Positions 10,810 to 41,555 of a stretch of 64,000 bases of DNA are shown here, piece after piece. The DNA lies in contig JAUWMQ010000003.1 in NCBI GenBank assembly GCA_030613065.1, positions 499 through 64,498 on the forward strand, in the 5' to 3' direction. Source of the stretch: Candidatus Aegiribacteria sp. Lineage in GTDB: Bacteria > Fermentibacterota > Fermentibacteria > Fermentibacterales > JCC-6. The position numbers and the translations under genes were made by a program. The notes beneath the pieces were generated by a model. The model saw nothing but the letters and a program-made list of their open reading frames with translations, made no database searches and was not told where the DNA came from. Positions within the stretch are counted from its first letter, which is position 1; every line of letters starts with the position of its first letter.

Positions 10810-10835
10810 TCGAGCCACACAATGGATGGTGCGGT

Positions 10836-10912: not shown

Positions 10913-10954
10913 TTTTTTATCTTTATTCAAGACCGGAAGGAGGTCGTCTGGATT

Positions 10955-12880: not shown

Positions 12881-12895
12881 ATAGGAGGTCAGTTC

Positions 12896-14157: not shown

Positions 14158-14174
14158 GGGAGAGGGGATGATCC

Positions 14175-14447
14175 GTGTCCCAGTCGGAAGATCTTGAGAG
14201 GTTGACTGAGGCTATCAATAGACTGATAGTCAGGTTCAGGTCAATACATTTGCAACGTGATGAATTGACGACACGGGTAAAGGAACTTGAGTCCAGACTG
14301 GAGAACAGTGCGGACTCGATGGATTCTGAGGGTTACAATAAACTCAGGATTCACAGCGCCAGACTTCTGCGGGAAAGGCAGGATGTCAAGCGAAGATTAT
14401 CGGGAGTGCTGGATAAACTGGAAAGTATTAAAATTGAAGGCGAATAA
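14175..14447 (+). CDS. Small coiled-coil protein (ZapB-like position, upstream of zapA)
   Basis: 90-aa heptad-rich ORF with a GTG start and a GAGAGGGGA Shine-Dalgarno. Immediately precedes zapA. Confidence 0.45.
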   Translation: MSQSEDLERLTEAINRLIVRFRSIHLQRDELTTRVKELESRLENSADSMDSEGYNKLRIHSARLLRERQDVKRRLSGVLDKLESIKIEGE

Positions 14448-17314: not shown

Positions 17315-18191
17315 TAGAGATAGAATAAGCGAGGATCTTTCAACGGCGGCATCCTGGGTAGAGAACGGCCTCTGTAGTATTTCCATGCGTCAGCAATCTA
17401 TCTCCCGCCTTCCATCCTTCGCACAGTATTCCCTTGAGTCCGGTGGAAAACGTGTAAGACCTTTCCTTGTCCGCTCAGCCTGCACAGCTGTTGGCGGACA
17501 TCCCGATTCAGCTTTGAAGGCAGCCTGCGCAGTTGAAATGATACATACGTATTCACTCATTCATGATGATCTGCCCTCGATGGATGACGATGATTTGAGG
17601 AGGGGAAAACCCGCCCTTCATACAAGATCAGGAGAAAAACAGGCTCTGCTTGCAGGCGATCTTCTTCTCATTGAAGCTTTTGGAGAACTCCTTGACACGC
17701 CTCTGGGGCCCGGCAGGGTAGCACTGATGGTTAAGCGGCTTGCAAGAGCAGCAGGTCCCGGATATCTTGTTGGAGGCCAGTATATGGATATGTATCACAG
17801 CTCCGATGCAGGAGCCGATTGGATACATACTATGATACTTGGGAAAACCGCCGCCATGATACGGGTATCACTTGAGCTGGGAGCCCTCGCAGGAGGAGCG
17901 GACGATGATGTACTTGAAGCAGTTTCTGCGGAAGGTGACAGACTGGGGTTTCTCTTTCAGCTGACTGATGATATTCTGGATCAATGCGGAAGTGCCGAAG
18001 AAATGGGCAAGGAAGTCTTAAAGGATACCGAACAGGGCAAGCGCAATTCAGTTTCCATGATAGGTCTTGATGAAGCCACATTAAAGGCCGAGGAAATGGC
18101 TTCCAGTATCGCCGCGAAACTGATGGATGTCAGGGGAGACTGGGGGAAGGTCGCAGACCTGGCCCTCTACCTTCCGCTCAGGAGGAAGTAG
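17301..18191 (+). CDS. ispA: Polyprenyl (farnesyl/geranylgeranyl) diphosphate synthase
   Basis: First Asp-rich motif 'LIHDDLPSMDDDDLRRGKP', second 'QLTDDILD', and 'GGKRVRP'. Located upstream of dxs. Confidence 0.85.
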   Translation: MRKPDRDRISEDLSTAASWVENGLCSISMRQQSISRLPSFAQYSLESGGKRVRPFLVRSACTAVGGHPDSALKAACAVEMIHTYSLIHDDLPSMDDDDLRRGKPALHTRSGEKQALLAGDLLLIEAFGELLDTPLGPGRVALMVKRLARAAGPGYLVGGQYMDMYHSSDAGADWIHTMILGKTAAMIRVSLELGALAGGADDDVLEAVSAEGDRLGFLFQLTDDILDQCGSAEEMGKEVLKDTEQGKRNSVSMIGLDEATLKAEEMASSIAAKLMDVRGDWGKVADLALYLPLRRK

Positions 18192-20059: not shown

Positions 20060-20909
20060 ACCCGCGGTTGTCAGAAGACTCTGTCTTTACGTCGACAGGT
20101 TCAATCCGCCGTACGCCGGGCTGATAAAAAACCTCATATCACATTGCGTAAAGTACGGTATATCTCTCAGATCGGCAGTTCCATCCTTTGACCATCTGAA
20201 GGATTTCGATATCCCGGAAAGTGACATTTGCGACATGGCGATAGTACTGGGTGGTGATGGAACGATTCTTCGTGGAATGGGATACTTCAAGGAGTTGAAT
20301 ACTCCCGTGCTGGGCGTGAACGCCGGTCATCTCGGCTTTATTGCGAGTGCTGAACAGACCTGTATTGAGAGAACAATAGAACGGATAGCCGAAGGTGATT
20401 ATTACATAGATACAACCCCTGTACTCAGGGCTGAATTTCCCTCAGAGCAAGCCATTACAGCCATTAACGATTTCACCGTCAACCGCTCGATGATCGGCGG
20501 AATACTGCATTTCAATCTCTACATTGACAGCACTAATGTCGCTCATGTGGCCGGTGACGGGCTTGTTATCTCAACGCCATTCGGATCAACGGCGTACAGT
20601 CTTTCATGTGGAGGTCCGATACTTGATCCGGGACTTCCGGCTATCCTGGTTGTTCCAATATGCCCGCATTCACTATCTCTCAGGCCCCTTGTCGTATCCG
20701 ATAACAGTAATATTTCGGTTGAGATATGTGACCTAAGAGGCCCCGGTCCGGTTGTATCCGCGGACGGGTCGCCTTGCGTGACTCTGAAATCCGGCGAGAT
20801 ACTGAAGGTAACCAGGGGGCCGGGATCATGCATGAGCGTCAGATTTCTCGATGAACCCGAATTTTACACCAGGCTGGGCCTGAAGCTTGGATGGGGAGTA
20901 AGAGGTTAA
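20040..20909 (+). CDS. nadK: NAD+ kinase
   Basis: 'VLGGDGTILR' and 'GDGLVISTPFGSTAYSLSCGGPIL' motifs. The start codon is uncertain (GTG 20040 overlaps the end of dxs). Confidence 0.85.
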   Translation: MILLVHEPAVVRRLCLYVDRFNPPYAGLIKNLISHCVKYGISLRSAVPSFDHLKDFDIPESDICDMAIVLGGDGTILRGMGYFKELNTPVLGVNAGHLGFIASAEQTCIERTIERIAEGDYYIDTTPVLRAEFPSEQAITAINDFTVNRSMIGGILHFNLYIDSTNVAHVAGDGLVISTPFGSTAYSLSCGGPILDPGLPAILVVPICPHSLSLRPLVVSDNSNISVEICDLRGPGPVVSADGSPCVTLKSGEILKVTRGPGSCMSVRFLDEPEFYTRLGLKLGWGVRG

Positions 20910-28399: not shown

Positions 28400-28527
28400 C
28401 ACACTTCTTCAACTTACTGGTGCAATTAATATAACAATTATAATTCAATCAACGAATATGCTGAATTTATAATAAATTATCTTATAAATGCAATTTCTTT
28501 ATCTGCTAAAAAAATGAATGCATTCAA

Positions 28528-28591
28528 TTGATAATATTAGCGGATATTGAATAGAATCAGGATTCATAAGCAAGATACCTGATATCGTTGA
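28528..28591 (+). repeat. Left copy of a ~60-bp diverged direct repeat flanking the secreted-protein gene
   Basis: A hand alignment to 29432-29492 gives about 45/55 identical positions: TTGATAATATTAGCGGATATTGAATAGAATCAGGATTCATAAGCAAGATACC... Confidence 0.6.
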
Positions 28592-28640
28592 GGAGAGGGA
28601 ATGAGGGGGGACCGGACGCTATGCCAGGCCCCATTTTGTG

Positions 28641-29294
28641 CTAGAATACAGTTTTGATAGAACCCCATGTTGAGTTTTCGAGAGCTAAAGCTGCTCCGAA
28701 CCGGGCATTTGCGAAAAGCTCACCAGTAGTTACGGGTTCTATGAATTCGATTCTGACGATTTCCTCATCAGAGTAAACTCCCCAGAACACGCCAGCAAGC
28801 GTACCGGCCGAGGAAGTAGTACCAAGAGAACCGCCAGTTCCGAACACTTCGATATAAACACTGCCGGTTGCCATAGGCATAACTATTTCAACTCCGAACG
28901 CATTGACGGGAACCGTAAACGAAAACTCACCATTGTCAGTAAGATTATTGGGACCCACTGTCACACTGGTCACTCCCAGATAGGGGGGAGTAAGAACCAC
29001 ATTGTTGTTACCTTCAAGATTATCAAAAGTTATACCATCTACAATAGCACCAGGGGTGAAACATGCATTATTGGTGAGGCTGTTGAAGGGACCAGGAGCG
29101 GGCTGTACACCGTCGGGAGGAACAATGGTACCTGAGTAGTCCTCGACTGTCAGGCCGGGATAGAGAGCATCGAACAGCGTTGCATCAGTATAGAAAGCAA
29201 CATCCGCCGAAGCCATGCAGGCTGCAAACAGAAGGACGAATATCAATAAAGTAAAATTCTTCAAACGAATCTTCCCTCGTTTTGTGCTTTCCAT
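28641..29294 (-). CDS. Secreted protein of unknown function (signal peptide; C-terminal 'NSTWGSIKTVF')
   Basis: 217 aa. The N-terminus 'KNFTLLIFVLLFAACMASA' looks like a signal peptide. The body is Gly/Thr/Val-rich and beta-like. Confidence 0.55.
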   Translation of the reverse strand: MESTKRGKIRLKNFTLLIFVLLFAACMASADVAFYTDATLFDALYPGLTVEDYSGTIVPPDGVQPAPGPFNSLTNNACFTPGAIVDGITFDNLEGNNNVVLTPPYLGVTSVTVGPNNLTDNGEFSFTVPVNAFGVEIVMPMATGSVYIEVFGTGGSLGTTSSAGTLAGVFWGVYSDEEIVRIEFIEPVTTGELFANARFGAALALENSTWGSIKTVF

Positions 29295-29431
29295 TGTGGA
29301 GAATCGCGCATGAGTAATAAGAAATATCTATCTTCGGATTACCTCCACATTACCTAATCGCAATCATAAGGCCTTCAGTCTGGACATGCAAAACCGGGTT
29401 GACAGGGCGAGGCGATCGAAGTAGTCAACGT

Positions 29432-29492
29432 TTGATTATATTCCCGAATATTGAACAGAATAACAATTCATCAGCAAGATACCCGAGGTTGA
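29432..29492 (+). repeat. Right copy of the ~60-bp diverged direct repeat
   Basis: TTGATTATATTCCCGAATATTGAACAGAATAACAATTCATCAGCAAGATACC..., aligned by hand to 28528-28591. Confidence 0.6.
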
Positions 29493-29595
29493 TATTTATG
29501 AATCATTCAGCAGCTCTCATTACGGTTATACTGATTTCCATGGTGGAGACCGTGGAAATGCTCTTTAATCCCCGGAAAAATGCGGGATTGCGATA

Positions 29596-30231
29596 ATGAA
29601 TCTAAAACCCATCATTTGCAGTATCCCCACCGGACCTCTTGATGTGAACTGCTACATTGTCGGATGTCCTTCAACGCGCGAGAGCGTGATCATCGATCCC
29701 GGAGGTCACGGGGAAAGAATCATTGAAACACTTGAAGGGCTTGATCTGAATCCGATTGCGCTGATAGATACACACGGACATTTTGATCATATCGGTGGAA
29801 ACGCTTATCTGATGGCTCATATGGATTCACTCCGGCTTTACCTTCATGCAGATGACCTTCATTACCTGAGGAATGCCAGGGAGCATGCTGATTACTGGGG
29901 TATGTCTTTTGAAGATTCACCCGAGCCCACCAACCTGATTCAGGATGGAGAACAGATCGATGCAGGAAAGCTTAAGCTGAAGATATTTCACACTCCGGGG
30001 CATTCTCCAGGCGGGATAAGTATCTTTATAACGGGTCACGTATTTACCGGAGATGCACTTTTTGAGGGATCAATTGGTAGAACTGACCTCCCCGGAGGGA
30101 ATTATGACCAGCTGATTTCCTCAATCAGGAAGAAACTCCTTGTTCTTCCCGATGATACCATCGTGCATCCTGGTCATGGCCCTGAAACAACTATAGGTAT
30201 AGAGAGAAGAATCAACCCCTTTCTTCAGTGA
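29596..30231 (+). CDS. MBL-fold metallo-hydrolase (hydroxyacylglutathione hydrolase-like)
   Basis: 'IDTHGHFDHIGG' (HxHxDH) motif and 'FHTPGHSPG'. 211 aa. Confidence 0.9.
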   Translation: MNLKPIICSIPTGPLDVNCYIVGCPSTRESVIIDPGGHGERIIETLEGLDLNPIALIDTHGHFDHIGGNAYLMAHMDSLRLYLHADDLHYLRNAREHADYWGMSFEDSPEPTNLIQDGEQIDAGKLKLKIFHTPGHSPGGISIFITGHVFTGDALFEGSIGRTDLPGGNYDQLISSIRKKLLVLPDDTIVHPGHGPETTIGIERRINPFLQ

Positions 30232-30974
30232 CTGATAACCCCGGTTACCATCCTGAACATACCATCGGGACCTTCAAAACCCGGTTCTGTTGCGTTCAGG
30301 ATAATGGCAACCAGGCTGTCCTCCAATACATAGACATCACTGATACGGTAGTTCGAAACGTACTGGTAACCGAATTTCGGTGATTCATCAAGAAGATGCA
30401 TTACTGTGTTACCGTTCGAATCTTTGAGCAGCACCTCAAGAAGAACAGGCGTCTCGAACATGGAAAGCCACTCTGGATGTGAGTCAGGCATATCCTTGTG
30501 GTTAATAACACGAAGGCTGTATTCCGGTCCGCTCCACATCAGTGAACCCACCCATGTAACGAATGAAACCATTTCAGGATCTACGCTTCTATCGGTCAGA
30601 GGATGGCAGATGCAGTGAACACCCTCGTTCTCCGGTGAAATACTCAGGCTGTCCAGAAAGGAATCGGCAGAATCGAGAACGATTTCTCCGGCCGGATTCA
30701 TGGAGTTTTCATAGCACATTTCAACACCCTCACTGTACATCATAGTTTCGGTCCATTGTACTTCAAATTTCCTGATTACACTGTTATCAGAGATTGACAT
30801 AACCACTATTTCAGCACCCGGGAATCCACTTCCGTCCTCGATCCAGTATTGTGAAAGCGCGGCGTATCTTCCATCATCGGAAAAGCCGAGGAACTCAACT
30901 GAAGCCAGAAAGGCGGCACCTGCCGCGGCGGTTGCGAGGAAAAGGAACAGAATAGTGAGTACGGAAGATTTCAT
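30225..30974 (-). CDS. Secreted protein (DUF2259-like from memory, unverified)
   Basis: Signal peptide 'VLTILFLFLATAAAGAA', then 'GFSDDGRYAALSQYWIEDGSGFPGAEI'. The first ~75 codons are duplicated at 32896-33119. Confidence 0.55.
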   Translation of the reverse strand: MKSSVLTILFLFLATAAAGAAFLASVEFLGFSDDGRYAALSQYWIEDGSGFPGAEIVVMSISDNSVIRKFEVQWTETMMYSEGVEMCYENSMNPAGEIVLDSADSFLDSLSISPENEGVHCICHPLTDRSVDPEMVSFVTWVGSLMWSGPEYSLRVINHKDMPDSHPEWLSMFETPVLLEVLLKDSNGNTVMHLLDESPKFGYQYVSNYRISDVYVLEDSLVAIILNATEPGFEGPDGMFRMVTGVISH

Positions 30975-31154
30975 ATTACTCCTTTATCGCAATGTTTGAT
31001 CAGAACTGTGAACATCCCTTTCATGAGTGTATAAATAGTATAGTTAATAGGCTGTGGAAGTGAAAATTCCAGGAATATTTCTCAGGGACGGTGCAAAGTG
31101 ATTAAATCGATGAATCCATTTACTGGTAAAACCATCCGATCATGGGCGGGAAAC
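30751..31154 (+). repeat. Copy A of a 404-bp direct repeat (5' end of the secreted-protein gene, divergent promoter region, first 19 codons of the ALDH gene)
   Basis: Aligned by hand to 32896-33300, with about 20 differences including 1 indel (~95% identity). Confidence 0.9.
31098..31154 (+). pseudogene. Orphan 5' fragment of the aldehyde dehydrogenase gene (19 codons) inside repeat copy A
   Basis: 'VIKSMNPFTGKTIRSWAGN' versus the intact 'MLKSINPFTGKTIRSWAGN' at 33244. The reading frame continues into unrelated sequence up to the stop at 31277. Confidence 0.75.
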
Positions 31155-31295
31155 AGGCGCTCATCTCGAAATGGTGATGTATCCGGAGCATCTCAATACT
31201 TCTGCGAGATACGCCGTTCAACACAGGGCTTCAGCATTCACTACCGGGCAGTCATCAAGACTGACGATGCACAGTGAATCTCATGAGCGTCTTTC

Positions 31296-31820
31296 TCACG
31301 GGAGTGCATGATCGTGAGCAGATGGAGTCGTGATATCCGATGGAAGGTTTTCGGGTAAACTGCCCGGTGGCTGATTTGGCCCGATGTCTGTTTCTACGAC
31401 GCTCTCTTCTAATACAAAGACTGTATCACCGAAAGAGTATTCAAGTGTGTATGAATGAGGTGCTGTGAGAGTGTAAGTTATGGCAGGATCATCATATCCC
31501 AGGAACTCCTGCTCTGTTGCAGGAAGTGCTCCAAACTGCAATTCGTAGTTTTTAGCCATTTGTGAGAGAGCGTCGAGCTGACCGTTGAACTGCTGGGTTA
31601 CCTCCTGAGGAATGATCGGTTCTGTGATCTCAGCTTCACCGGAAAACAGGAACTGCACAGCAAGTACAATAACAAGAACTACTGATGCTCCTGCAAGCAG
31701 GTATCCGGGAGGTACCTTTTTCTTCTCTTCCTTTTTCCTGTGTAATTGTTTTTCCTTCCTGCTCAGCGCTTTTTCAGCTTCATCAAAATACCCATTTTCA
31801 GTGGTGTCAGAATTGCTCAT
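31296..31820 (-). CDS. Single-pass membrane protein, function unknown (downstream of the pilin gene)
   Basis: ATG 31820 has an AGGAGG Shine-Dalgarno (the ORF-track start at 31868 lacks one). Lys-rich N-terminus, one TM helix 'LLAGASVVLVIVLAVQFLF', and an extracytoplasmic C-terminal domain. Confidence 0.45.
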   Translation of the reverse strand: MSNSDTTENGYFDEAEKALSRKEKQLHRKKEEKKKVPPGYLLAGASVVLVIVLAVQFLFSGEAEITEPIIPQEVTQQFNGQLDALSQMAKNYELQFGALPATEQEFLGYDDPAITYTLTAPHSYTLEYSFGDTVFVLEESVVETDIGPNQPPGSLPENLPSDITTPSAHDHALP

Positions 31821-31898
31821 TGGAGACCTCCTTTTACCCGTATTACACTGTCCGCAAGTGTTGATCAATGTCTTGAGAACCTCATTCCAGACAACGCT

Positions 31899-32318
31899 TT
31901 ATTCAGGTGTCCAGCCAAGCTCCCAGGTGGCACTGCCATCCCAGAAGTACCCGTGCTGGGGGAAAACATAGAAACAGACTGAGTAATAATAGGAATATGT
32001 AGTGCCGCCCACGGTGTATATATATCCATATACCCAGTACTTCCCAGCTGTTGAGGAACTCGAGCCGCTTGCAGTTGGGCAACGCATGCTAGATGCGTTT
32101 GCCATCACGCAGTCAAGGCTTTCGATGTCAGTCGGATATGTGTTTCTTTCCGCGAAGTATATGTTCATCCCTGATGCAAGGTTTCGCATGTTTGATCTGC
32201 ACGCGGATTTCTGGGAATCAGTCTTGATATCTCCGAATTTTGGAATGGCTATTGCGGATATTATTCCTATGATTACGACAACGATCATAAGTTCTATCAG
32301 AGTAAATCCACGTTTCAT
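31899..32318 (-). CDS. Type IV pilin / pseudopilin with prepilin N-terminal methylation motif and a very aromatic C-terminal region
   Basis: 'MKRGFTLIELMIVVVIIGIISAIAIPKF' (G|FTLIE cleavage/methylation site). GGGAGG Shine-Dalgarno upstream. The last ~48 aa contain about 10 Y, 4 W and 3 F. Confidence 0.8.
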   Translation of the reverse strand: MKRGFTLIELMIVVVIIGIISAIAIPKFGDIKTDSQKSACRSNMRNLASGMNIYFAERNTYPTDIESLDCVMANASSMRCPTASGSSSSTAGKYWVYGYIYTVGGTTYSYYYSVCFYVFPQHGYFWDGSATWELGWTPE

Positions 32319-32407
32319 GATCGAACACCTCCCTTAATAAACTATATCCCGTTAGTGTTTACCTGTAATCTACTGTAAGAACATACTACATTCACAGAAG
32401 TATCAAA

Positions 32408-32895
32408 TCAGACATCGAAGTTCCTGGCAAGGGTGAGGTGAAAGTGTTCACCTTTGTAGACCACACTCTTTGAGTACTGATTGAAGCTCATCCTCTCAAG
32501 GGAAAATGGAGCCCTTGAGATATATTCGCTGAGAGTCTTACGACCATCGGCATCACAGGCTTTTATGGGCTTGCCGCAGTGAACGCTGAAACCGCTGTGC
32601 TTCCAGGAGTTCATGTTCTCCACCAGTTTCTCTGAGATCATGTCCTCATCGAGAAGCATCTTGAAGACAAGACCGGCAAAGACTCTTTCAATACCATGTA
32701 TGTCAGCGGAATCAAGATCTGGCATACTATGAATATTGCCATCTCTGTCCCAGCAGACATCCGTTACAAGACAATGGACGTGAGGGTTCCAGCTGGCCAT
32801 GCCTCCGAAGGTCTGGACCAGTACACCACCAGGGAAAACATCATCCATATCAAGTGCTTCATGAACAAACACTGTCAATGAGTTCCATGTTTTCT
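32408..32895 (-). pseudogene. IS91-family (HUH/Y2 rolling-circle) transposase fragment, truncated at both ends
   Basis: 'VQTFGGMASWNPHVHCLVTD' (HUH-type HxH motif) and 'YISRAPFSLERMSF...VVYKGEH' (Y2_Tnp region). The N-terminal Zn-binding part and the C-terminal third are missing. Its 5' end abuts repeat copy B. Confidence 0.6.
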
Positions 32896-33119
32896 GTCCA
32901 TTGTACTTCAAATTTCCTGATTACACTGTTATCAGAGATTGACATAACCACTATTTCAGCGCCCGGGAATCCACTTCCGTCCTCGATCCAGTATTGTGAA
33001 AGCGCGGCGTATCTTCCATCATCGGAAAAGCCGAGGAACTCAACTGAAGCCAGAAAGGCGGCACCTGCCGCGGCGGTTGCGAGCAGAAGGAACAGAATAG
33101 TGAGTACGGAAGGTTTCAT
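32896..33119 (-). pseudogene. Orphan 5' fragment (~75 codons) of the 30225-30974 secreted-protein gene inside repeat copy B
   Basis: 'MKPSVLTILFLLLATAAAGAAFLASVEFLGFSDDGRYAALSQYWIEDGSGFPGAEIVVMSISDNSVIRKFEVQWTE' is near-identical to the N-terminus of the intact gene, then diverges at the repeat boundary. Confidence 0.8.
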
Positions 33120-33300
33120 AATACTCCTTAATCGCAATGCTTGATCAAAACCGTGAACATCCCTTTCATGAGTGTATAATATAGTATAGTTAATAGGCTG
33201 TGGAAGTGAAAATCCCAGGAATATTTCTCAGGGAAGGTGAAAAGTGCTTAAATCGATAAATCCATTTACGGGTAAAACCATCCGATCATGGGCTGGAAAC
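32896..33300 (+). repeat. Copy B of the 404-bp direct repeat
   Basis: See 30751-31154. 405 bp, ~95% identical. Confidence 0.9.
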
Positions 33301-34623
33301 ACTCCTGAAGAAGTCGAGAAAACCATTGAGAAGGCAGACAGAGCTTTCAGAATCTGGCGCGATACCAAGCTGGATAAACGCGCAGAGAAGCTGAGGAATC
33401 TTGCTTATCTGCTTGACTCAGGGAAGCACCAGCTTGCAGTGGAGATGGCTTCAGAGATGGGCAAACCTGTCACCCAGGGACAGTCCGAAATTGAAAAATG
33501 CGCGTGGGTCTGCAGGTACTACGCGCAATACGGCTCCCGATTAATTGCTAAGAAAAGCAGGAAAACAGACGCAGATAAGTGCTACGTCTGTTATCAGCCC
33601 CTCGGAGTCATATTCGCAGTGATGCCCTGGAATTTCCCGTTCTGGCAGTTTTTCAGATTTGCGGCACCTGCCGTGATGGCTGGAAATACCTTCGTTCTCA
33701 AGCATTCCCCGAACGTTACCGGGTGTGCCCTGAGCATCCCGGAGCTGTTCAGGGATGCTGGCTTTCTGGATGGTCTGGCCGGGCTTATTCTCGTTCCTGA
33801 GGAAAAGGTTCCCGAAGTGTCCAGCATAGTAATTGCCGATCACAGGATAAAGGCAGTTACGCTAACCGGGAGCGGAACAGCAGGCGGGGCAGTCGCATCG
33901 GGGGCGGGATCGGCTATAAAGAAGTGTGTGCTGGAACTAGGAGGGAGTGACCCTGCGATAATTCTGGAAGATGCGGATCTTAAACTTGCAGCCGCTGAAT
34001 CGGTGTTTTCCAGGCTGATCAATGCAGGGCAGAACTGCATTGCCTCCAAGAGGTTCATTGTGATTGAGAGTGTTTATAGCGAGTTTCTTGAACTGCTTGT
34101 GAAGGAGATGCAGATCACCAGGATGGGCGACCCTATGGATATGAAAGTAGACCTGGGACCAATGGCCAGGTACGATCTCCGTGATAACCTTCATCGACAG
34201 GTTATGCAGAGCGTTGATCTTGGAGCTGAGCTGATCATGGGAGGCAACATACCGGAGCATCATGGAGCTTTCTATCCGCCTACAGTACTCACGGGCTGCA
34301 GAAAGGGAATGCCTGTTTTTGATGAAGAAACCTTCGGTCCTGTAGCTGCAGTCTGTTCGGTAAGGAATGAGGGAGAAGCCGTTAAGCTTGCCAACGATAC
34401 GTCTTACGGCCTCGGAGCGTCAGTCTACACACGTGATGTTCGCCGGGGAGAGAAGATAGCTCTTGAGATGAATGCAGGAGCCTGCTTCGTGAACACATTT
34501 GTCCGGTCAGATCCCAGGCTGCCTTTCGGTGGAATCGGTCGTTCAGGTTTCGGCAGAGAGCTGTCTCGCAGCGGGATGCTTGAATTTACAAACTGTAAAA
34601 CCGTTTACATCATGAATGGATAA
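33244..34623 (+). CDS. NAD(P)+-dependent aldehyde dehydrogenase (succinate-semialdehyde dehydrogenase-like)
   Basis: 'LELGGSDP', catalytic Cys in 'GQNCIASKR', and 'EETFGPV'. 459 aa, GTG start. Confidence 0.9.
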   Translation: MLKSINPFTGKTIRSWAGNTPEEVEKTIEKADRAFRIWRDTKLDKRAEKLRNLAYLLDSGKHQLAVEMASEMGKPVTQGQSEIEKCAWVCRYYAQYGSRLIAKKSRKTDADKCYVCYQPLGVIFAVMPWNFPFWQFFRFAAPAVMAGNTFVLKHSPNVTGCALSIPELFRDAGFLDGLAGLILVPEEKVPEVSSIVIADHRIKAVTLTGSGTAGGAVASGAGSAIKKCVLELGGSDPAIILEDADLKLAAAESVFSRLINAGQNCIASKRFIVIESVYSEFLELLVKEMQITRMGDPMDMKVDLGPMARYDLRDNLHRQVMQSVDLGAELIMGGNIPEHHGAFYPPTVLTGCRKGMPVFDEETFGPVAAVCSVRNEGEAVKLANDTSYGLGASVYTRDVRRGEKIALEMNAGACFVNTFVRSDPRLPFGGIGRSGFGRELSRSGMLEFTNCKTVYIMNG

Positions 34624-35764
34624 TGGCTGTTGAAAGAGGATCGGAGATGAAGCGGTGGTAAACGCGAATTCTCCTGTGGAGACGTTTCTCATAGAGTTTC
34701 CACATTGCCTGGATCTTTTTATTGTCTTCCAGTTCATGGTTGCTCTCAGCGAATTCCATTCTCCTTTTAAAAGCGCTCTTTCCGATTTCGTAGGTCATAA
34801 GAGCATCCACGCCTTTTCCCTGGTATTCCGGAAGGATGCCGGCAAGGTAGAAATCAAGGATTTTGCTCTTTTTCATTGCCCTGAGAATATGGATGAAACC
34901 GAACGGGAAAAGCCTCCCCTTTGCCTTCTGGAAAGCCTTTGACAGATTGGGCATTGCAATTATGAATCCCACTAGCTTGTCTCCGTCAACAGCAAGTTTG
35001 ATGAACTCCGGATCCACCTGTCCAAGATAGGCTTTTATGTAGTAATTAATCTCTTCTTCATCAAGCAGAGTTGTGCCGTACAGCTCTTTGTAGGATTCAT
35101 TCAAAACGTCGAAAACCTGGTGTCCCCATTTTTTCGAGAGAGCTTTTGTAGAATTCTCATTGAATACCTTTACAGTGCTCCTTTTCTTTATCAGTGCTGT
35201 CAGGCGTTCCACCTTTTCGGGGAGAGCATCGGGTACGGTTATCTTGAATTCAACGTAGTCCACTTCTTTCACGTAACCTCTTGATGTTACCAGATCATTG
35301 TACCATGCAGGATTGTAACTGCCTGATATTGTAGGCAGCTCGTCGAACCCTTCAATGAGAAATCCCGTCATATCATTGTCTGTGAAACCCATAGGTCCTG
35401 AAACCTCGGTCATGCCATTTTCAGCGAGCCAGTTCTCCGCAGCGTCGAGGAGTGTGTTTGCAGTTTCCCGGTTATCCTCGCATTCGAACCATCCGAACCT
35501 TCCGCAGTTCCTGTCCGTTTTATCCAGATATCTTTTATTTATAATGGCTGCTATACGACCGATGGGTTTGCCATCTCGCCAGGCCAGAAAGAATTCGGTA
35601 TCACAGTATCTGTAAGCTGGATTCTTCCGGGGATCGAACTGATCCTTTTCCTGGGAGATAAGAGGAGGTATCCAGAGCGGGTCATCACTGTAAAGCCTGT
35701 AGGGAAGCATGATGAATTGTTTCAATTCGCTTTTTGTTTTTACGGGTTTAATAACAGCAGACAT
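34610..35764 (-). CDS. GNAT-family N-acetyltransferase-like protein (~380-aa family)
   Basis: N-terminus 'VKTKSELKQFIMLPYRLYSDDPLWIPPLISQEKDQFDPRKNP...GRIAAIIN' is typical of this widespread family. 14-nt convergent overlap with the ALDH gene. Confidence 0.65.
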   Translation of the reverse strand: MSAVIKPVKTKSELKQFIMLPYRLYSDDPLWIPPLISQEKDQFDPRKNPAYRYCDTEFFLAWRDGKPIGRIAAIINKRYLDKTDRNCGRFGWFECEDNRETANTLLDAAENWLAENGMTEVSGPMGFTDNDMTGFLIEGFDELPTISGSYNPAWYNDLVTSRGYVKEVDYVEFKITVPDALPEKVERLTALIKKRSTVKVFNENSTKALSKKWGHQVFDVLNESYKELYGTTLLDEEEINYYIKAYLGQVDPEFIKLAVDGDKLVGFIIAMPNLSKAFQKAKGRLFPFGFIHILRAMKKSKILDFYLAGILPEYQGKGVDALMTYEIGKSAFKRRMEFAESNHELEDNKKIQAMWKLYEKRLHRRIRVYHRFISDPLSTAIIHS

Positions 35765-35895
35765 AAAAGCTCCTTCTGGTTCTGGTATTGGAAGAATCTA
35801 ATCTTATGAAGTGCCGGGTCAAATACCCTGATATTCTGGAACTATCCACCATGTTCGAACTATCAACTAAATGAAGTTCAACAGAAGGGGGCCCT

Positions 35896-36771
35896 ATGAA
35901 AAACAATGGTAAATTCCAGAATGGATTGATTCCTCCGGCTCTCAGTATCCTGTTTACCGCGGGTTTTTTGCCGGTGGGAACGGTTTCGGCTTCGGATCAG
36001 CTCAGCAACCATATCGGTACAGTTGATGATAATGGCTCAAGTTCAGCTCTTTCAGTATCCCTCTTAACGAGAACTTCTGCTCTTTGGAGCAACCCCCAGT
36101 GGCAGGAATTCAAGAGGATCTGGAAGAAGCTGGACAGTATTGCCCCGGCTGACGGTGATTACAGCTCCAACCAGCTTGATTATGAAAAGCTAAACAAGAT
36201 CAGGATTGAGCTGGACAACAGTTACGTTGAATTAATGAGAATCGCTGACGAAATAACTATTGACTCTCTCGATATCGTACTCCTCCACAGGCTGGCATCC
36301 GACAGGCTTGATATTCTTGCCTACGGTTCGGCACTACCCATGACAAGGATGATGCTGCCACCCATTTCTGATCAGACTGATGATCTCCTTCCACAGATCG
36401 AAGCCAGGATTGACACAGTTGTTCGCCTGAGGGAGGATGGTCTGATCTCATCCGGGGAAATGATAACAACCTTCAGCAACCTGAGATCTTCCATCGACTT
36501 GTATTATCTTCTGGAAACTATCAACAGTGAAACCGGTTATTCAGGGGTGCTATGGACGGTTCGATGGCCAATGGAGGTTGATCGGATACAGCCGTACCTT
36601 GACAGTATTAAAACCTCTGTAATGGAAAGTCTCAGGAATGCAGGATCAGAGAATGAGGAAGGGTACAGCGTGATGCTTGAGGATCTGCGGAATATGGAGC
36701 AATCCATAAGCAATGTGCAGGACAGATTGCCTGCTCTGCACGATCTTCTCCTTGATCTTGAGCTTTTCTGA
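35896..36771 (+). CDS. Secreted all-helical protein, function unknown (no Cys)
   Basis: 291 aa with a signal-like N-terminus 'LIPPALSILFTAGFLPVGTVSA'. Its stop is 8 nt before the radical SAM start. Confidence 0.5.
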   Translation: MKNNGKFQNGLIPPALSILFTAGFLPVGTVSASDQLSNHIGTVDDNGSSSALSVSLLTRTSALWSNPQWQEFKRIWKKLDSIAPADGDYSSNQLDYEKLNKIRIELDNSYVELMRIADEITIDSLDIVLLHRLASDRLDILAYGSALPMTRMMLPPISDQTDDLLPQIEARIDTVVRLREDGLISSGEMITTFSNLRSSIDLYYLLETINSETGYSGVLWTVRWPMEVDRIQPYLDSIKTSVMESLRNAGSENEEGYSVMLEDLRNMEQSISNVQDRLPALHDLLLDLELF

Positions 36772-36778
36772 TAACTCG

Positions 36779-37747
36779 ATGAAAGGCCCCTTGTTCGTTT
36801 TCGAGATCACACCCCAATGTAACCTTGCCTGCACTTACTGCTACAATGTATGGAAGACTGATAGTGAACACTACCCCAGGGAACTCTCGCTGGACGAGAT
36901 TGAGAACCTCGCGGATTCAATTCAAGCTGCGCATCCGATTTCAGTTACCTTAACCGGCGGAGAACCTATTCTGAGAGATGATCTTCATGAGATCGTCAGT
37001 ATCCTTAGGAAGCGCGGAATTCTGGTTGGAATTGCAACCAATGGTATGCTTCTTGATCGGGATACAGCACATTCGCTGAAGGAAGCAGGTGCTTCATGGT
37101 TTGAAGTATCCGTCACTTCAGTTTCCGGAGAGAGATACACTGATCTGACGGGCACCGATGGGTTTGATGATGTAAAACGGGCTATGCTCGCTGTGAAATC
37201 CGCCGGTGCCAGGTTAACCATTTCACATATCATAACTTCACTGAATTACGGTGATGCAGGGCAGGTTGTTGACCTTGCTTACGCGTTCTCGGCGGATGCG
37301 ACAGCCCTCAACCGCTTCGTACCCGGCGGAACTGGCCTTGAGAACAGGCATCTTCTGCCCACCCTCGAACAGCTTGATTCCGCCCTGAAAAGCGCCGGTG
37401 AAAGATCACTCATGTCCCCCGGAATGACAGTATACGCCGCCATTCCAGTAGAGGATTGTCTGCTGCATCACAGTGATTACCCCGGTGTATCGTTCGGATC
37501 CTGCATATGCGGGGCGGGAAAATGGGCGATAAGCCCCTCAGGAGATCTGAGAGTATGCGAACAGAGTTCGCACATCATCGGAAGCCTCCTGGAAAGATCT
37601 TTTGAGGAACTGTCCCGTTCTGAATTCGTTGAGGAATTCCGGTGCAGCAACAGGAGCTCAGACTGTGAATCGTGCAGTTCCATGACCGTATGCGGAGGAG
37701 GGTGCAGATTTCTCAGGGAAATACCCACATGCGGAGTTATTCCCTGA
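36779..37747 (+). CDS. Radical SAM enzyme with a C-terminal SPASM domain
   Basis: 'CNLACTYCYN' (CxxxCxxC) near the N-terminus and 'CESCSSMTVCGGGC' (CX2CX5CX3C SPASM motif). ATG 36779; the ORF-track start at 36713 overlaps the upstream gene. Confidence 0.85.
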   Translation: MKGPLFVFEITPQCNLACTYCYNVWKTDSEHYPRELSLDEIENLADSIQAAHPISVTLTGGEPILRDDLHEIVSILRKRGILVGIATNGMLLDRDTAHSLKEAGASWFEVSVTSVSGERYTDLTGTDGFDDVKRAMLAVKSAGARLTISHIITSLNYGDAGQVVDLAYAFSADATALNRFVPGGTGLENRHLLPTLEQLDSALKSAGERSLMSPGMTVYAAIPVEDCLLHHSDYPGVSFGSCICGAGKWAISPSGDLRVCEQSSHIIGSLLERSFEELSRSEFVEEFRCSNRSSDCESCSSMTVCGGGCRFLREIPTCGVIP

Positions 37748-37799
37748 CATGTTCAAGCCCCTTTGAGACAAGGTCTTTCACATGGTCATCATCCAACCT
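37676..37799 (+). repeat. Copy 1 of a 124-bp direct repeat (3' end of the radical SAM gene plus 3' end of arsR)
   Basis: Identical to 41186-41309 except for one T/C difference (37751 vs 41261), which is synonymous in the arsR frame. Confidence 0.95.
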
Positions 37800-37853
37800 T
37801 GAGGCTTTCCTGAAATAGATGCATATTTAGAGTAAATACCATGAAATTCCAAC

Positions 37854-37881
37854 TTGACATGTTCGATTTTCATGGTATTAT
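37854..37881 (+). promoter_or_regulatory. Near-consensus sigma70 promoter positioned for a leaderless transcript of the ATPase gene
   Basis: TTGACA (37854-37859), N16, TATTAT (37876-37881). ATG 37888 lies 7 nt after the -10 and has no Shine-Dalgarno. The promoter sits inside the inverted repeat TACCATGAAA (37837-37846) / TTTCATGGTA (37869-37878). Confidence 0.6.
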
Positions 37882-37887
37882 CATCAC

Positions 37888-39036
37888 ATGGTACAGCGGG
37901 ATTGTCTTCTGTCTGAGTTGAATCGAGCCCTTGGAAGGAGCCGGATAGTACTTCTTTCCGGTCCCAGACAGAGCGGCAAGACCACTATAGCCAGAGAGCT
38001 TGTCTCACTGGAGTCGGTGAACTACTTTGACCTTGAGAACCCTCTTGATTTTAACAGATTATCAGAACCATTCACTGCTCTTAACGATCTGCGTGGCCTG
38101 GTTGTTATAGACGAGGTGCAAAGGTCACCTGATCTTTTCCCGGTACTTAGAGTGCTTGCCGACAGGCCTGACATTCCGGCGACTTTCCTTATTCTCGGCA
38201 GCGCATCCGGCCAGTTACTGAGGCAGAGCTCAGAGAGCCTTGCCGGAAGGCTTGAGATACAGAACATCACTGGATTCACTCTTGATGAGGTGGGAGCTGA
38301 AAAACATAAACAGCTCTGGCTGAGAGGTAGCTTCCCCAGATCTTTCCTGGCTGACAGTGAGGAGGACAGCTCAGCATGGAGGCGAAACTTCATGCAGACG
38401 CTGCTCGAGCGGGACTTCCCTCAATGGGGAGTGAGAGTACCTGCAACAGCACTTGGGCGTTTCTGGAGAATGCTGGCTCATTATCACGGGCAGTACTGGA
38501 ATGCCGCAGAGCCTGCCAGAGTTCTCGGAGTAAGTCAGACTACCGTGAGAAGACATCTCGACATAATGACTGATGCATTCATGATAAGGCAGTTGCAGCC
38601 CTGGCTTGCCAATCTGGCTAAAAGACAGGTAAAGTCACCTAAGATATACATCAGAGACAGCGGTCTTCTCCATCAGCTTCTTGGAATTGAGACGGAAAAA
38701 GGAGCTCTAACCAATCCGAAAACTGGAGCATCCTGGGAAGGCTTTGTGATAGAGCAGGTCATTGCATCCACCTGGCACGACAGCGTACACTTCTGGGCTT
38801 CACATCAGGGAGCTGAGATTGATCTGATACTGACAAGAGGAGATGATCTGTTCGGTGTTGAATGTAAACTCTCAGATGCACCGAAGCTGACTCTCTCCAT
38901 GAAAACCACCTTGGATCAACTGGGGCTCTCCAGGATTGCTGTCATCTACCCAGGCATGAAAAGATACCAGCTGTATCCTGGAATAGAGGCTGTTCCTGTC
39001 AGCTCTCTTGAAGAAAGAGAAAGTCTCTTCCGCTAA
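37888..39036 (+). CDS. AAA+ ATPase (AAA_14) with a DUF4143 C-terminal PD-(D/E)xK-like nuclease module
   Basis: Walker A 'GPRQSGKTT', Walker B 'VVIDEVQ', and a C-terminal 'GAEIDLIL...FGVECKLS' (D...ExK) pattern. Confidence 0.85.
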   Translation: MVQRDCLLSELNRALGRSRIVLLSGPRQSGKTTIARELVSLESVNYFDLENPLDFNRLSEPFTALNDLRGLVVIDEVQRSPDLFPVLRVLADRPDIPATFLILGSASGQLLRQSSESLAGRLEIQNITGFTLDEVGAEKHKQLWLRGSFPRSFLADSEEDSSAWRRNFMQTLLERDFPQWGVRVPATALGRFWRMLAHYHGQYWNAAEPARVLGVSQTTVRRHLDIMTDAFMIRQLQPWLANLAKRQVKSPKIYIRDSGLLHQLLGIETEKGALTNPKTGASWEGFVIEQVIASTWHDSVHFWASHQGAEIDLILTRGDDLFGVECKLSDAPKLTLSMKTTLDQLGLSRIAVIYPGMKRYQLYPGIEAVPVSSLEERESLFR

Positions 39037-39095
39037 CCGCTTCTCCCCAGTTTGGTCATATTCGGCAAAACAAGTTCTACTGAAAGGAATCCACC

Positions 39096-41135
39096 ATGAG
39101 AAACGAATACCCGATAACGAAAAAATGCGATGCTTCTGATGTGTTCTTCGGAGAGGTTATTGCCGATCCGTACAGGTGGCTGGAAGATGACACTTCACCT
39201 GAGGTCGCTTCATGGGTTAAGGCTCAGAATCAGGCTACTTTCTCTCATCTGGATTCCATTTCCCTGCGGCAGATCATCCGGGACCGGATGGCTCAACTCT
39301 GGAATCATGCCAGATACGGCGCTCCTTTCAGGCGCGGTGAATGGACATACTTCTTTCTGAATAGCGGGCTGCAGAGCCAGGCTGTCCTGTACAGGGAGAA
39401 GGATGGTGGGGAACCTGAAGTGTTTCTTGATCCCAACACCTTTTCATCTGACGGAACAACATCCCTTTCCGGCATAGGCTTTTCCCCTGATGGTTCCTTT
39501 GCCTGTTACAGCGTGTCCGAAGGTGGAGCGGACTGGCAGACCGTTAGAGTCATCGCCTGTGATGCTCCCGAAGAAGTATTGGAGACAGTTTCCGATGTGA
39601 AGTTTTCGGCACTGAGCTGGAGGGGTAGTGAGGGTTTCTACTACAGCAGCTATCGGAAACCGGAATTCGGCACGGTTCTTTCTGCGAAGACAACTGAACA
39701 CAGACTGATGTTCCACAGACTGGGGTCACACCAGGATTCCGATGTACTTGTCTTCGGAGGTTCAGAGACTCCACGCAGGTATGTGAACGGTGAAGTGACA
39801 GAGGACGGCAGATGGTTGTGGATAACCGCTTCTGTTTCCACAACAGGTGACGAGCTTTATGTGCGTGACCTTTCCACCGCTGATTCTTCTCTGGTGCAGC
39901 TCGCTTCGGGTTTCGAGAGAGAGTACAGGGTGGTAGACAGCCTTGGAGATAATCTCTTCGTGGAAACCAACCTGGATGCGCCCAACAACCGTCTGGTTCT
40001 GGTTGATATGTCCTCTCCCTCCTCTTCATGGAAAGATGTGATTCCCGAGAGGGGTGAAGTTCTCTCGGTTACCCATGGCGGAGGATACCTGTTCGCCACA
40101 TATCTGCAGGACGCGTTATCAGTTGTGGAGCAGGTTGACCATTCCGGGAACGTGGTACGGGTGGTTGAACTCCCGGGCACCGGTACCTCGCAGGTCTTCA
40201 CCGGACTCCGGGATGATACTGATGTCTACTACAGCTTCACAAGCTACACCCATCCCCGGGAGATATGGGCTCTGGATGTTGTTTCAGGAGAGTCCTCCAG
40301 GTTCAGGGCTTCAGGGGTGGAGTTCGATCCATCAATGTATGTGTCTGATCAGGTCTTTTTTCAATCGGCTGACGGAACCACCGTACCGATGATGATAACT
40401 CGCAGGAAGGATGTAGTCCCCGCCGGCAACAATCCGTGCCTGCTCTACGGCTACGGCGGATTCAATGCGAAGATCACCCCGGCCTTCAGTGTATCTGCGG
40501 TTGCGTGGATGGAACAGGGCGGAGTGTATGCTGTGCCCAACATTCGCGGTGGAGGTGAGTACGGAGAGGCATGGCATCTGGCCGGAACGAAAACTTCCAA
40601 ACAGAATGTCTTCAACGATTTCATTGCAGCGGCTGAATACCTGTGCACTTCAGGCTGGACAAACCCATCGAGACTTACTGTTTCAGGCGGCAGTAACGGC
40701 GGTCTTCTTGTGGGAGCGGTGATAACACAGAGACCGAAACTGTTCGGTGCAGCACTTCCTGCAGTAGGAGTGCTGGACATGCTCCGCTATCACCGGTTCA
40801 CAGCCGGTGCAGGCTGGGCATACGACTACGGTACAGCAGAGGACAGTGAAGAGATGTTCAGGTACCTGCTGGGATACTCACCGCTGCACAATGTGAAACA
40901 CGGCACATCCTACCCGGCGGTCATGGTGACCACCGGAGATCATGATGACCGGGTTGTGCCTGCTCACTCCTTCAAGTTCGCAGCGGCCCTGCAGGCAGCT
41001 CAGGAAGGGCAGGCTCCGGTTCTCATCCGGGTTGATGTGAACGCCGGACATGGAGCGGGAAAACCCATGGGCATGCTGATAGACTGCGAGGCGGACAGGC
41101 TCTCTTTCGCTCTGCACCATCTCAGACAGCTCTGA
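39096..41135 (+). CDS. Prolyl oligopeptidase (S9A family)
   Basis: N-terminus 'DPYRWLEDD', a beta-propeller region, catalytic Ser 'GGSNGGLLVGA', and Asp/His in 'GDHDDRV' and 'GHGAGKP'. 679 aa. Confidence 0.93.
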   Translation: MRNEYPITKKCDASDVFFGEVIADPYRWLEDDTSPEVASWVKAQNQATFSHLDSISLRQIIRDRMAQLWNHARYGAPFRRGEWTYFFLNSGLQSQAVLYREKDGGEPEVFLDPNTFSSDGTTSLSGIGFSPDGSFACYSVSEGGADWQTVRVIACDAPEEVLETVSDVKFSALSWRGSEGFYYSSYRKPEFGTVLSAKTTEHRLMFHRLGSHQDSDVLVFGGSETPRRYVNGEVTEDGRWLWITASVSTTGDELYVRDLSTADSSLVQLASGFEREYRVVDSLGDNLFVETNLDAPNNRLVLVDMSSPSSSWKDVIPERGEVLSVTHGGGYLFATYLQDALSVVEQVDHSGNVVRVVELPGTGTSQVFTGLRDDTDVYYSFTSYTHPREIWALDVVSGESSRFRASGVEFDPSMYVSDQVFFQSADGTTVPMMITRRKDVVPAGNNPCLLYGYGGFNAKITPAFSVSAVAWMEQGGVYAVPNIRGGGEYGEAWHLAGTKTSKQNVFNDFIAAAEYLCTSGWTNPSRLTVSGGSNGGLLVGAVITQRPKLFGAALPAVGVLDMLRYHRFTAGAGWAYDYGTAEDSEEMFRYLLGYSPLHNVKHGTSYPAVMVTTGDHDDRVVPAHSFKFAAALQAAQEGQAPVLIRVDVNAGHGAGKPMGMLIDCEADRLSFALHHLRQL

Positions 41136-41185
41136 AGGGAAGACATCTTTCCGATCAAGGGTTTCATGAAGATACATCGTGAGAG

Positions 41186-41309
41186 AGTTCCATGACCGTA
41201 TGCGGAGGAGGGTGCAGATTTCTCAGGGAAATACCCACATGCGGAGTTATTCCCTGACATGCTCAAGCCCCTTTGAGACAAGGTCTTTCACATGGTCATC
41301 ATCCAACCT
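41186..41309 (+). repeat. Copy 2 of the 124-bp direct repeat
   Basis: See 37676-37799. Here it carries the functional 3' end of arsR and an orphan 3' fragment of the radical SAM gene. Confidence 0.95.
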
Positions 41310-41555
41310 GTAAAATACGTGCCTTCCTTTTTTTCGGCTCCTGACAAGTCTGGCTGTGCGCAGGGATCTGAGCTGGTGGGAAACTGCAGAAACACTTACA
41401 TCCGTCTTCTCCGCCAGTTCACAAACGCATTTCTCACCGGAGAACATTGACATAAGAAGAAGCAGCCTGGTCGGATCAGCCATCTGATGAAATAGTTCAG
41501 CCAGAACTTCAACTTCTTCGGTGTGAACCTGCAGTTCTTCTCCTGTACCGGTCAT
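41247..41555 (-). CDS. ArsR/SmtB-family metalloregulator
   Basis: 'FSGEKCVCELAEKTDVSVSAVSHQLRSLRTARLVRSRKKGRHVFYRL' shows the CVC metal site plus a winged HTH. Immediately downstream of the efflux permease in the same operon. Confidence 0.9.
   Translation of the reverse strand: MTGTGEELQVHTEEVEVLAELFHQMADPTRLLLLMSMFSGEKCVCELAEKTDVSVSAVSHQLRSLRTARLVRSRKKGRHVFYRLDDDHVKDLVSKGLEHVRE

Follow-up and report, generated by a model that had tools for sequence, protein, structure and literature searches.

Three small gene cassettes in a Candidatus Aegiribacteria contig are bracketed by direct duplications of host gene junctions, and two of them end in IS91-family transposase remnants

Three small gene cassettes, here called (i), (ii) and (iii), lie in a contig of Candidatus Aegiribacteria, and each of them is bracketed by a long direct duplication of the host junction at which it sits. 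The contig belongs to a metagenome-assembled genome (MAG), and we analyzed a window of 64 kb from it, "the window" meaning this whole stretch throughout; loci from other genomes or assemblies that were compared with it carry the labels L001 to L169. Relatives have the corresponding sites empty, insertions with duplications of their own recur at one of the same sites and elsewhere, and at one end of cassettes (ii) and (iii) an IS91-family transposase gene has left remnants that share a common break point. From these observations we infer a circular intermediate, a homologous crossover and a role for the transposase. The best explanation that we can offer, with a probability of roughly 40%, would be Campbell-type integration of junction-bearing circles generated by an IS91-family element.

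Results

Anatomy of the repeat pairs

The entire window was compared with itself by BLASTN (E<1e-3), and a separate repeat-finding run was made. Exactly three repeat pairs were present in the 64 kb, all of them direct; they are the same three that a first-pass annotation, made from the sequence alone, had reported and proposed to check by such a self-comparison. Pair (i) measures 55 nt (82% identical, E=9e-8), pair (ii) 410/411 nt (95.6% identical, the copies differing internally by 17 mismatches and 1 indel) and pair (iii) 124 nt (99.2% identical, 1 mismatch), and between the copies lie inserts of 849 nt, 1735 nt (31156-32890) and 3386 nt (37800-41185), respectively (coordinates in Table 1). 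All three lie where the annotation had placed them, except that its starts for pair (ii), 30751 and 32896, are 5 nt too far in and its insert length of 1741 nt is off by a few bases.

The repeat boundaries were sharp in alignments that included the flanks. Every copy is continuous with its own flank, and both neighbouring genes are intact. Self-BLASTN revealed no sequence common to the three repeats and no second copy of any insert in the window. Repeat finding gave no inverted repeats at the insert ends, and the left junctions of the inserts have no common motif; a candidate motif, GAAAT, at the far (left) ends of inserts (ii) and (iii) and of an insert in L162 was not significant and was dropped. 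The cassette ends showed no structure above shuffled controls and, with no integrase present, none of the attC/intI features of integron cassettes. The hallmark of a DDE transposon is a duplication of fixed length, about 2-14 bp, together with terminal inverted repeats. Neither a short fixed duplication (the lengths are 55, 410 and 124 nt) nor such inverted repeats were found here, and the earlier statement that duplications of 55-411 nt are much too long for DDE target-site duplications is borne out.

As the annotation had also recognized, the repeats of pairs (ii) and (iii) are pieces of the flanking genes. Repeat (ii) spans DUF2259 codons 1-76, the 123-nt divergent intergenic region and ALDH codons 1-19; its left copy serves DUF2259 and its right copy serves ALDH. 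Repeat (iii) spans the last 24 codons of the radical-SAM gene, which overlap the last 20 codons of arsR, and its sole mismatch is synonymous in arsR. Repeat (i) is promoter-like, with TTGATA-N18-TAGAAT upstream of the MBL gene.

Empty sites in relatives

We then compared, by synteny mapping, the relatives' loci around the window, that is, those encoding homologues of its central 384-aa protein. These loci assign the window to Candidatus Aegiribacteria, of the Fermentibacteria lineage. Empty sites had been predicted for all three junctions and all three were found, each with a single copy of the repeat sequence. The ALDH/DUF2259 site is empty in 12 loci (L001, L003, L004, L006, L009, L010, L011, L019, L082, L084, L085 and L086), in which the two genes are directly divergent with a gap of 115-125 nt. 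Deleting insert (ii) plus one repeat copy gives a spacing of 123 nt, and the claim that such an excision restores a compact locus thus holds. The radical SAM/ArsR site is empty in L006 only, where the genes lie about 50 nt apart and both halves of repeat (iii) are present once. At the ABC/MBL site, L003 and L085 lack sec217, with the genes about 200 nt apart and the right copy of repeat (i) conserved. Because the relatives' empty sites carry the repeat sequence once, the three inserts are, judging from this comparison, additions to a conserved compact locus. The cargo genes of (ii) are absent at all of the relatives' corresponding loci, and the cargo of (iii) is absent from relatives at the radical SAM/arsR site.

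The situation is different for cassette (i). Its gene, sec217, is predicted to encode a secreted protein of 217 aa with a signal-peptide-like N-terminus and has no Pfam or NCBIfam match. The gene is missing in L003 and L085; it is present in L001, L004, L006 and L019 at 63-69% amino-acid identity, where it occupies the same site and the repeat is not duplicated. L003 (87% over 70 nt), L004 and L001 have conserved the right copy of repeat (i) upstream of their MBL gene, and the left copy was not found in the relatives compared. Because four relatives carry sec217 without a second repeat copy, insertion (i) would therefore be an older event, or the left copy would have been lost elsewhere, and it makes a weaker case than (ii) and (iii).

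Recurrence at the same junction and elsewhere

An independent MAG, L014, carries a different insert of 7 kb at the ALDH/DUF2259 junction, flanked by its own 147-nt duplication (12952-13098 versus 20117-20263, 92% identical), whose boundaries are unlike those in the window. Its cargo encodes a secreted protein, a TPR-PAS-GGDEF protein, an FG-GAP/T9SS protein and a lipoprotein. Since the identical runs of this pair are at most about 32 nt, it did not result from repeat collapse in an assembly with k=127. In another assembly, L162, a 123-nt duplication of the uvrA 3' end surrounds an IS91 fragment together with cargo of about 7 kb; the tail of the pseudo uvrA copy stays in frame and retains its own stop codon. 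As L014 has a different insert and its own duplication at the same junction, the process that adds cassettes is recurrent and not a one-off assembly error. The earlier suggestion that one process operated repeatedly is supported by both L014 (147 nt, same junction) and L162 (123 nt, uvrA end). Inserts without duplication also occur at the window's sites, in L012, L003 and L086 and, at the arsR site, in L007 and L014.

A related arrangement was seen in L169 (4300-15900), where four cassettes between gltX and an alcohol dehydrogenase gene are set apart by directly oriented tRNA-Glu(CTC) sequences: two complete genes, and three or more partial copies that comprise the tRNA 3' end and about 270 nt downstream of it. 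The whole forms an array of junction duplications. One of these cassettes holds an IS91 fragment and another a PhdYeFM/ParE pair.

Transposase remnants at the right ends of inserts (ii) and (iii)

Pfam scans of 56 open reading frames (ORFs) detected neither integrases (tyrosine or serine recombinases) nor intact transposases in the window. The statement in the annotation that no integrase or recombinase gene is present is correct to that extent; it overlooked a truncated IS91-family gene in insert (ii) and a remnant of one in insert (iii), both at the right ends, and its view of the machinery as unidentified has to be revised accordingly. In insert (ii), a 167-aa ORF that represents part of an IS91-family HUH/Y2 transposase occupies the right end (Pfam Y2_Tnp, 1.4e-9; positions 140-255 of 356 of the NCBIfam IS91 model). 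This ORF has 71 database homologues, nearly all from Aegiribacteria or Fermentibacteria, and every one of them is a fragment of at most 280 aa. From these homologue fragments we assembled a transposase consensus of 452 aa, which scores above the cut-off of the NCBIfam IS91 model and is matched by the ISCR clade Ia model as well. The fragment in insert (ii) corresponds to residues 146-306 of the about 452 of the consensus (tblastn 78%, 3e-83). At the right end of insert (iii), a 59-nt remnant corresponds to residues 146-168 (23 codons; tblastn 8e-6 and 3e-5, the latter against the consensus).

The two remnants are 76% identical in DNA (24% diverged) and have the same break codon, residue 146. 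Both are minus-strand sequences whose truncated 5' ends abut the right repeat copy. The plus-strand junctions read ...GAGTTC/CATG... (the slash marks the break), and each break immediately follows a GTTC on the strand antisense to tnpA. That two breaks would independently fall on one and the same nucleotide of a 1.36-kb gene is unlikely by chance, about 0.4% by a rough estimate. A third break, in L164, lies within two codons of residue 146; recurrence in L167 was ruled out, as the fragment there starts near residue 164. The host boundary of (iii) reads CAGTTC/CATGACC, which leaves 9 nt of microhomology (AGTTCCATG) at the right junction, and the right junction of (ii) has 3-4 nt. GTTC or CTTG was also sought at the junctions of pair (i), L014 and L162 and was absent, save for a CTTG one base off in L162. 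At the left end of insert (ii), a further possible IS91 fragment (31227-31346, plus strand) was not significant (tblastn E=0.14, profile E=1.6, consensus search negative).

In the IS91 family, terIS lies upstream of tnpA, and IS801 and IS1294 are cleaved there at GTTC; insertion takes place at GTTC or CTTG, it is the bottom strand that transposes, one-ended events frequently take flanking DNA along, and transposition is reported to make no target duplication (PMC13181058). A terIS end has a cleavage tetranucleotide, GTTC or CTCG, with a subterminal palindrome next to it. The break points described above agree with the cleavage site in tetranucleotide, strand and side, but they lie inside coding sequence. 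We defined the oriIS end of the family from eight copies in L161, L163 and L164 (...CCACTTTCCTATTACC) and the terIS region from two (L164, L169); the latter region was not found in the window. An intact IS91/ISCR gene would encode a zinc-binding N-terminal domain plus Y2_Tnp, and the inserts hold residues 146-306 and 146-168 only. Among inserts that were found independently of IS91, debris of the family occurs in 3 of 4 with flanking duplications versus 0 of 6 without (Fisher P about 0.03).

IS91-like fragments in L161, L162, L163, L164 and L169 have clustered start points, and no intact copy was seen there. Contig-internal copies show clean internal deletions (consensus residues 243-381, 116-219, 263-420, 41-148 and 37-204). 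L163 holds five copies of the IS91-like 3' end (tnpA tail plus about 250 nt ending in ...CCACTTTCCTATTACC) within 18 kb, at 5107-5417, 10598-10994, 12863-13261, 14082-14255 and 17695-17753, most of them without a transposase body. Beside IS91 fragments in L167, the region 1000-7600 is largely non-coding and has direct repeats of about 2.8 kb (2900-4225 versus 5729-7043, 92% identical).

Differences between the repeat copies

Exact shared runs of 122 nt and 78 nt occur in pairs (ii) and (iii), respectively. In pair (ii), sequence diverged by 3-8% flanks the perfectly identical 122-nt block on either side (P about 0.03; split test P=0.002). Such a block would be expected if a crossover had used the longest identical block of the donor and recipient copies, and it leans towards a crossover. 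The difference spectrum of the pair is mixed (10 transitions, 10 transversions), and in the coding parts of the non-functional copies in general about half of the changes are synonymous or conservative and none is a frameshift; this would fit a diverged donor copy and likewise leans towards a crossover. Alleles of both copies occur among relatives, and the comparison did not decide which copy is ancestral. A diversity-generating retroelement was rejected because the differences are not adenine-specific. In the L014 pair, all 12 differences are G:C to A:T (6 C to T, 6 G to A) and are found in the copy beside DUF2259 only; the repeat pairs of the window do not show this one-directional signature, which resembles deamination. 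The annotation had read the graded divergence of the three pairs as a succession in time. This is not required, as under Campbell integration the divergence would be the distance between donor and recipient.

Feature coordinates, cargo and neighbouring genes

Table 1. Coordinates of the repeat copies, inserts and transposase remnants in the window
Feature	Coordinates	Strand	Content
Repeat (i), left copy	28528-28582	+	Diverged copy of the promoter-like sequence found upstream of MBL; lies between the end of the ABC ATPase gene and the sec217 3' end
Insert (i)	28583-29431	-	sec217 gene (28641-29294) plus its upstream region
Repeat (i), right copy	29432-29486	+	Native MBL-upstream sequence
Repeat (ii), left copy	30746-31155		Intact DUF2259 5' end (minus, start 30974), intergenic region, non-functional ALDH codons 1-19
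Cargo (ii)	31156-32407	-	190-aa ORF (31296-31868); prepilin-type 139-aa gene (31899-32318)
IS91-family (HUH/Y2) transposase fragment	32408-32890	-	5'- and 3'-truncated; 5' break abuts the second repeat copy
Repeat (ii), right copy	32891-33301		Non-functional DUF2259 codons 1-76, intergenic region, intact ALDH start (33244)
Repeat (iii), left copy	37676-37799		Intact radical-SAM 3' end (stop 37747), non-functional last 20 arsR codons; starts with AGTTCCATG, host GTTC at the boundary
Cargo (iii)	37800-41135	+	AAA_14/DUF4143 ATPase gene (37888-39036); S9A prolyl oligopeptidase gene (39096-41135)
IS91-family transposase remnant	41136-41194	-	Consensus residues 146-168; last 9 nt (AGTTCCATG) common to the host repeat
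Repeat (iii), right copy	41186-41309		Non-functional radical-SAM 3' end, intact arsR 3' end (arsR 41247-41555, minus)

The gene order is SMC, FtsY, ABC ATPase, sec217 (minus), MBL hydrolase, DUF2259 (minus), then orf190, the prepilin-type gene and the IS91 fragment (all minus), ALDH, the 384-aa acetyltransferase-like gene (minus), orf291, radical SAM, the AAA_14/DUF4143 ATPase, the S9A prolyl oligopeptidase, ArsR (minus) and a permease (minus). The remaining genes of the window are housekeeping genes (IleRS, LspA, ThrRS, IF3, RNase Y, DXS, RecN, HisRS, acetate kinase and others). An Rfam scan found no known RNA family in the repeats, its sole matches being two tRNAs.

The prepilin-type protein of cassette (ii) matches N_methyl and pilin/pseudopilin models in Pfam and NCBIfam, and its gene is widespread, with 8 other members at least 90% identical on other contigs from several sources; close homologues of the peptidase, sec217 and arsR were likewise located on further contigs. 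For the S9A peptidase of cassette (iii), the nearest homologues (76% and 72%) stand in unrelated contexts. A conserved linkage of cargo with IS91 was ruled out, the contexts of the closest peptidase homologues containing neither IS91 nor the ATPase. There are a few homologues, presumably from Aegiribacteria, at 66-76%, and the next closest are Bacteroidota proteins at about 58-62%; the Aegiribacteria MLS_C copy beside the MBL gene is just 43% identical. These comparisons suggest that the prolyl oligopeptidase may have been acquired from outside the lineage. A viral origin of cargo was discarded, as the ATPase had no matches and the pilin matched viral contigs by its N-terminal motif only.

The junction between ALDH and the 384-aa gene is another variable one, judging from a gap of 130-640 nt in most relatives and a 2.5-kb insert in L003. 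In the window (34610-34623) and in L002, the product of the 384-aa gene has a C-terminus 13 residues longer, and the gene overlaps the ALDH stop. A motif of 17-34 nt just 3' of the ABC ATPase gene (window 28400-28433) recurs inverted 3' of the 384-aa gene in relatives (L006, 4401-4427 and 8706-8732; L085, 3050-3075 and 6722-6747) and may be a shared terminator or a small repeat element.

Discussion

Proposed circle capture and single crossover

Campbell-type integration is the single crossover of a circular DNA into a chromosome, as with suicide plasmids and with prophages that bring along a substitute end of their target gene. We propose that an IS91-family rolling-circle transposase probably generated circles carrying a cassette plus a copy of a host junction, and that one homologous crossover between circle and chromosome at the shared junction would have inserted each cassette. 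Such a crossover would duplicate the junction and leave both neighbouring genes with their promoters or ends. A single crossover would account for the unbroken passage of each copy into its own flank and for the survival of both neighbour genes, and junction duplication with intact neighbours would explain how insertions are tolerated in a compact housekeeping region. An IS91-family element is put forward as the source of the circles because cassettes (ii) and (iii) end in remnants of its transposase gene, cut at the same GTTC. Integration of this type had been proposed in the first-pass annotation. It fits the anatomy, and it gains weak support from the mosaic of pair (ii) (P about 0.03) and from the synonymous or conservative differences, whereas the L014 pair leans the other way.

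Several observations weigh against this proposal. Insert (i) contains no IS91 debris, and no intact transposase was found in the window or among the 71 database homologues. No oriIS was detected in the window (nhmmer with the eight-copy profile, best E 0.9; pattern search) or at the far end of the L162 insert, and no significant hairpin lies beside the GTTC break (z 0.5-1.1). The host boundary of (ii) has neither GTTC nor CTTG. In L014, the debris is an internal oriIS piece only and not at a junction; in L162, the IS91 fragment does not abut the repeat but lies 143 nt away from it, across unrelated sequence. Because all 12 differences of the L014 pair are one-directional and in one copy, they suggest that its copies may have been identical initially and then mutated in place in a deamination-like manner, rather than stemming from a diverged donor allele. 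The proposal also does not explain where the first junction-bearing circle came from. Finally, the numbers of insertion events are small, and some of the statistical tests were picked after the data had been seen.

Comparison with known systems

The closest parallel is found in ISCR1 complex class 1 integrons, for which the accepted model, that of Toleman, has aberrant rolling-circle replication yield a circle with flanking backbone that is then rescued by homologous recombination (PMC6834847, PMC3575428). The order of parts is the same, namely a backbone copy, an IS91/ISCR tnpA without its 5' (terIS) side, captured genes and a second direct copy; we found this order in (ii) and (iii), in mirror orientation, and in L162. 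The match of the reconstructed transposase to both the NCBIfam IS91 and the ISCR clade Ia models is a further likeness. In contrast to the integron 3'-conserved segment, however, the duplicated segment here is chromosomal, consists of housekeeping gene ends and promoters and is specific to each site; the transposase is a short fragment without oriIS, the cargo is not made up of resistance genes, and the host belongs to an uncultured phylum of the FCB group.

Similarly to IS91, IS801 and IS1294, the window system involves the HUH/Y2 family, a break after GTTC on the antisense strand at the terIS side, GTTC at the host boundary of (iii) and mobilization of adjacent DNA. It differs from them in its duplications (55-411 nt versus none), in the use of a GTTC inside coding sequence and in the lack of oriIS, subterminal hairpin and intact tnpA. 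Elements of the IS91/ISCR type insert beside GTTC or CTTG without target duplication; here, GTTC stands at the host boundary of (iii) and not of (ii), and all three inserts are flanked by duplications.

With Campbell integration, the cassettes share the direct duplication that brackets the insert, imperfect copies that are continuous with their flanks, and deletion restoring the relatives' empty site; direct duplication, flank continuity and a single-copy empty site were all found. Unlike the usual cases, they have no replicon, integrase or phage genes, and the inserts are just 0.85-3.4 kb long. The microcin H47 island of E. coli is integrase-less and has extensive imperfect direct repeats that recombine within blocks of identity (PMC3191183). 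The cassettes resemble it in being small, in lacking their own recombinase and in having long imperfect direct repeats at their flanks, but the H47 repeats are a dedicated attachment sequence widespread in E. coli, whereas those described here are pieces of neighbouring genes that differ from site to site.

By its sequence features, the window system is not an IS91/ISCR transposable unit, since it lacks an intact tnpA and an oriIS and has target duplications; nor is it a DDE element, an integrase island or an integron cassette. The evidence points to a route of gene gain that is known in outline, with unusual details. New here are the chromosomal, junction-specific duplications around small cassettes, their occurrence in an uncultured phylum and the shared GTTC break in the transposase remnants.

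Alternative explanations

It is possible, though we rather doubt it, that the duplications originated by replication. A nick or collapsed fork at the target would be extended, re-copying 55-411 nt, and the strand would then switch to a cassette template and return or be joined upstream; the duplication would amount to a very long target-site duplication of variable length. Variants of this idea are microhomology-mediated template switching and synthesis primed from a nick made by the IS91 transposase at a target GTTC. The right junctions indeed lie in microhomology (the 9 nt AGTTCCATG in (iii), 3-4 nt in (ii)), and the donor ends in (ii) and (iii) and the host end in (iii) are GTTC, matching the cleavage chemistry of the family. 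Moreover, left junctions without a shared motif would be expected of an imprecise second join, the exclusively G:C to A:T differences in L014 are consistent with an identical start and passage of one copy through a damaged or single-stranded state, and IS91 fragments show many microhomology-type internal deletions, one of them at the same codon (L164). However, the uneven, mixed-spectrum differences of pair (ii) fit diverged alleles better than decay, no second insert copy exists in the window, the host boundary of (ii) lacks GTTC, and IS91 transposition is reported to proceed without target duplication (PMC13181058).

A route that we consider unlikely is one in which an IS91-family HUH transposase would act in trans on terIS-less derivatives ending at an internal GTTC, the target being nicked, its 3' end extended by tens to hundreds of bases and the cassette strand joined to it. 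If true, this would be a previously undescribed outcome of HUH transposition, with variable, very long target-site duplications and both neighbouring genes kept, and it would provide compact genomes with a dedicated, non-disruptive way of gaining genes.

Less likely still, in our view, is that a recombinase supplied in trans integrated the cassettes site-specifically. The cassettes would then amount to small parasitic islands and would use long, imperfect copies of host gene ends for attachment. Prophages can carry a substitute 3' end of their target gene and thereby restore the interrupted gene, and here, too, the duplications restore both flanking genes. The ALDH/DUF2259 junction was struck twice independently (window and L014), as a preferred attachment site would be; however, the two duplications at this junction differ in their boundaries. 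In L169, copies of the tRNA-Glu 3' end with the sequence downstream of it separate the cassettes of an array, the IS91 debris of L163 and L168 has tyrosine-recombinase genes or fragments nearby, and the integrase-less H47 island has imperfect direct repeats and recombines within identity blocks (PMC3191183). Against this, the window has no integrase, three different specificities would be needed because the three repeats share no sequence, and lengths of up to 411 nt far exceed known core sites.

The least probable alternative in our view is mis-threading, in which an assembler would have merged an empty-site chromosome with a separate, circular or otherwise linked, molecule carrying cassette and junction. 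The contig comes from a MAG, the exact shared runs of 122 nt (ii) and 78 nt (iii) exceed many assembly k-mers, and an integrated form and an empty site plus circle have identical junction sequences, which sequence alone cannot separate; yet in pair (i) and in the L014 pair the shared runs are too short for graph merging, the same architecture occurs in assemblies from different projects and assemblers, and even if mis-threading were true, a circle with a copy of the host junction, which is the intermediate proposed above, would exist.

Implications

If integration of IS91-generated circles by a single crossover is true, the cassettes would be natural, non-clinical examples of ISCR capture and rescue that act on ordinary chromosomal junctions and whose empty and filled sites can be compared. 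Because the junction is duplicated, a compact genome could gain genes between packed or overlapping genes without damage, and the resulting direct repeats would let cassettes loop out and move on via ordinary recombination. The shared GTTC break would connect an HUH transposase with long target duplications in a concrete way that can be tested.

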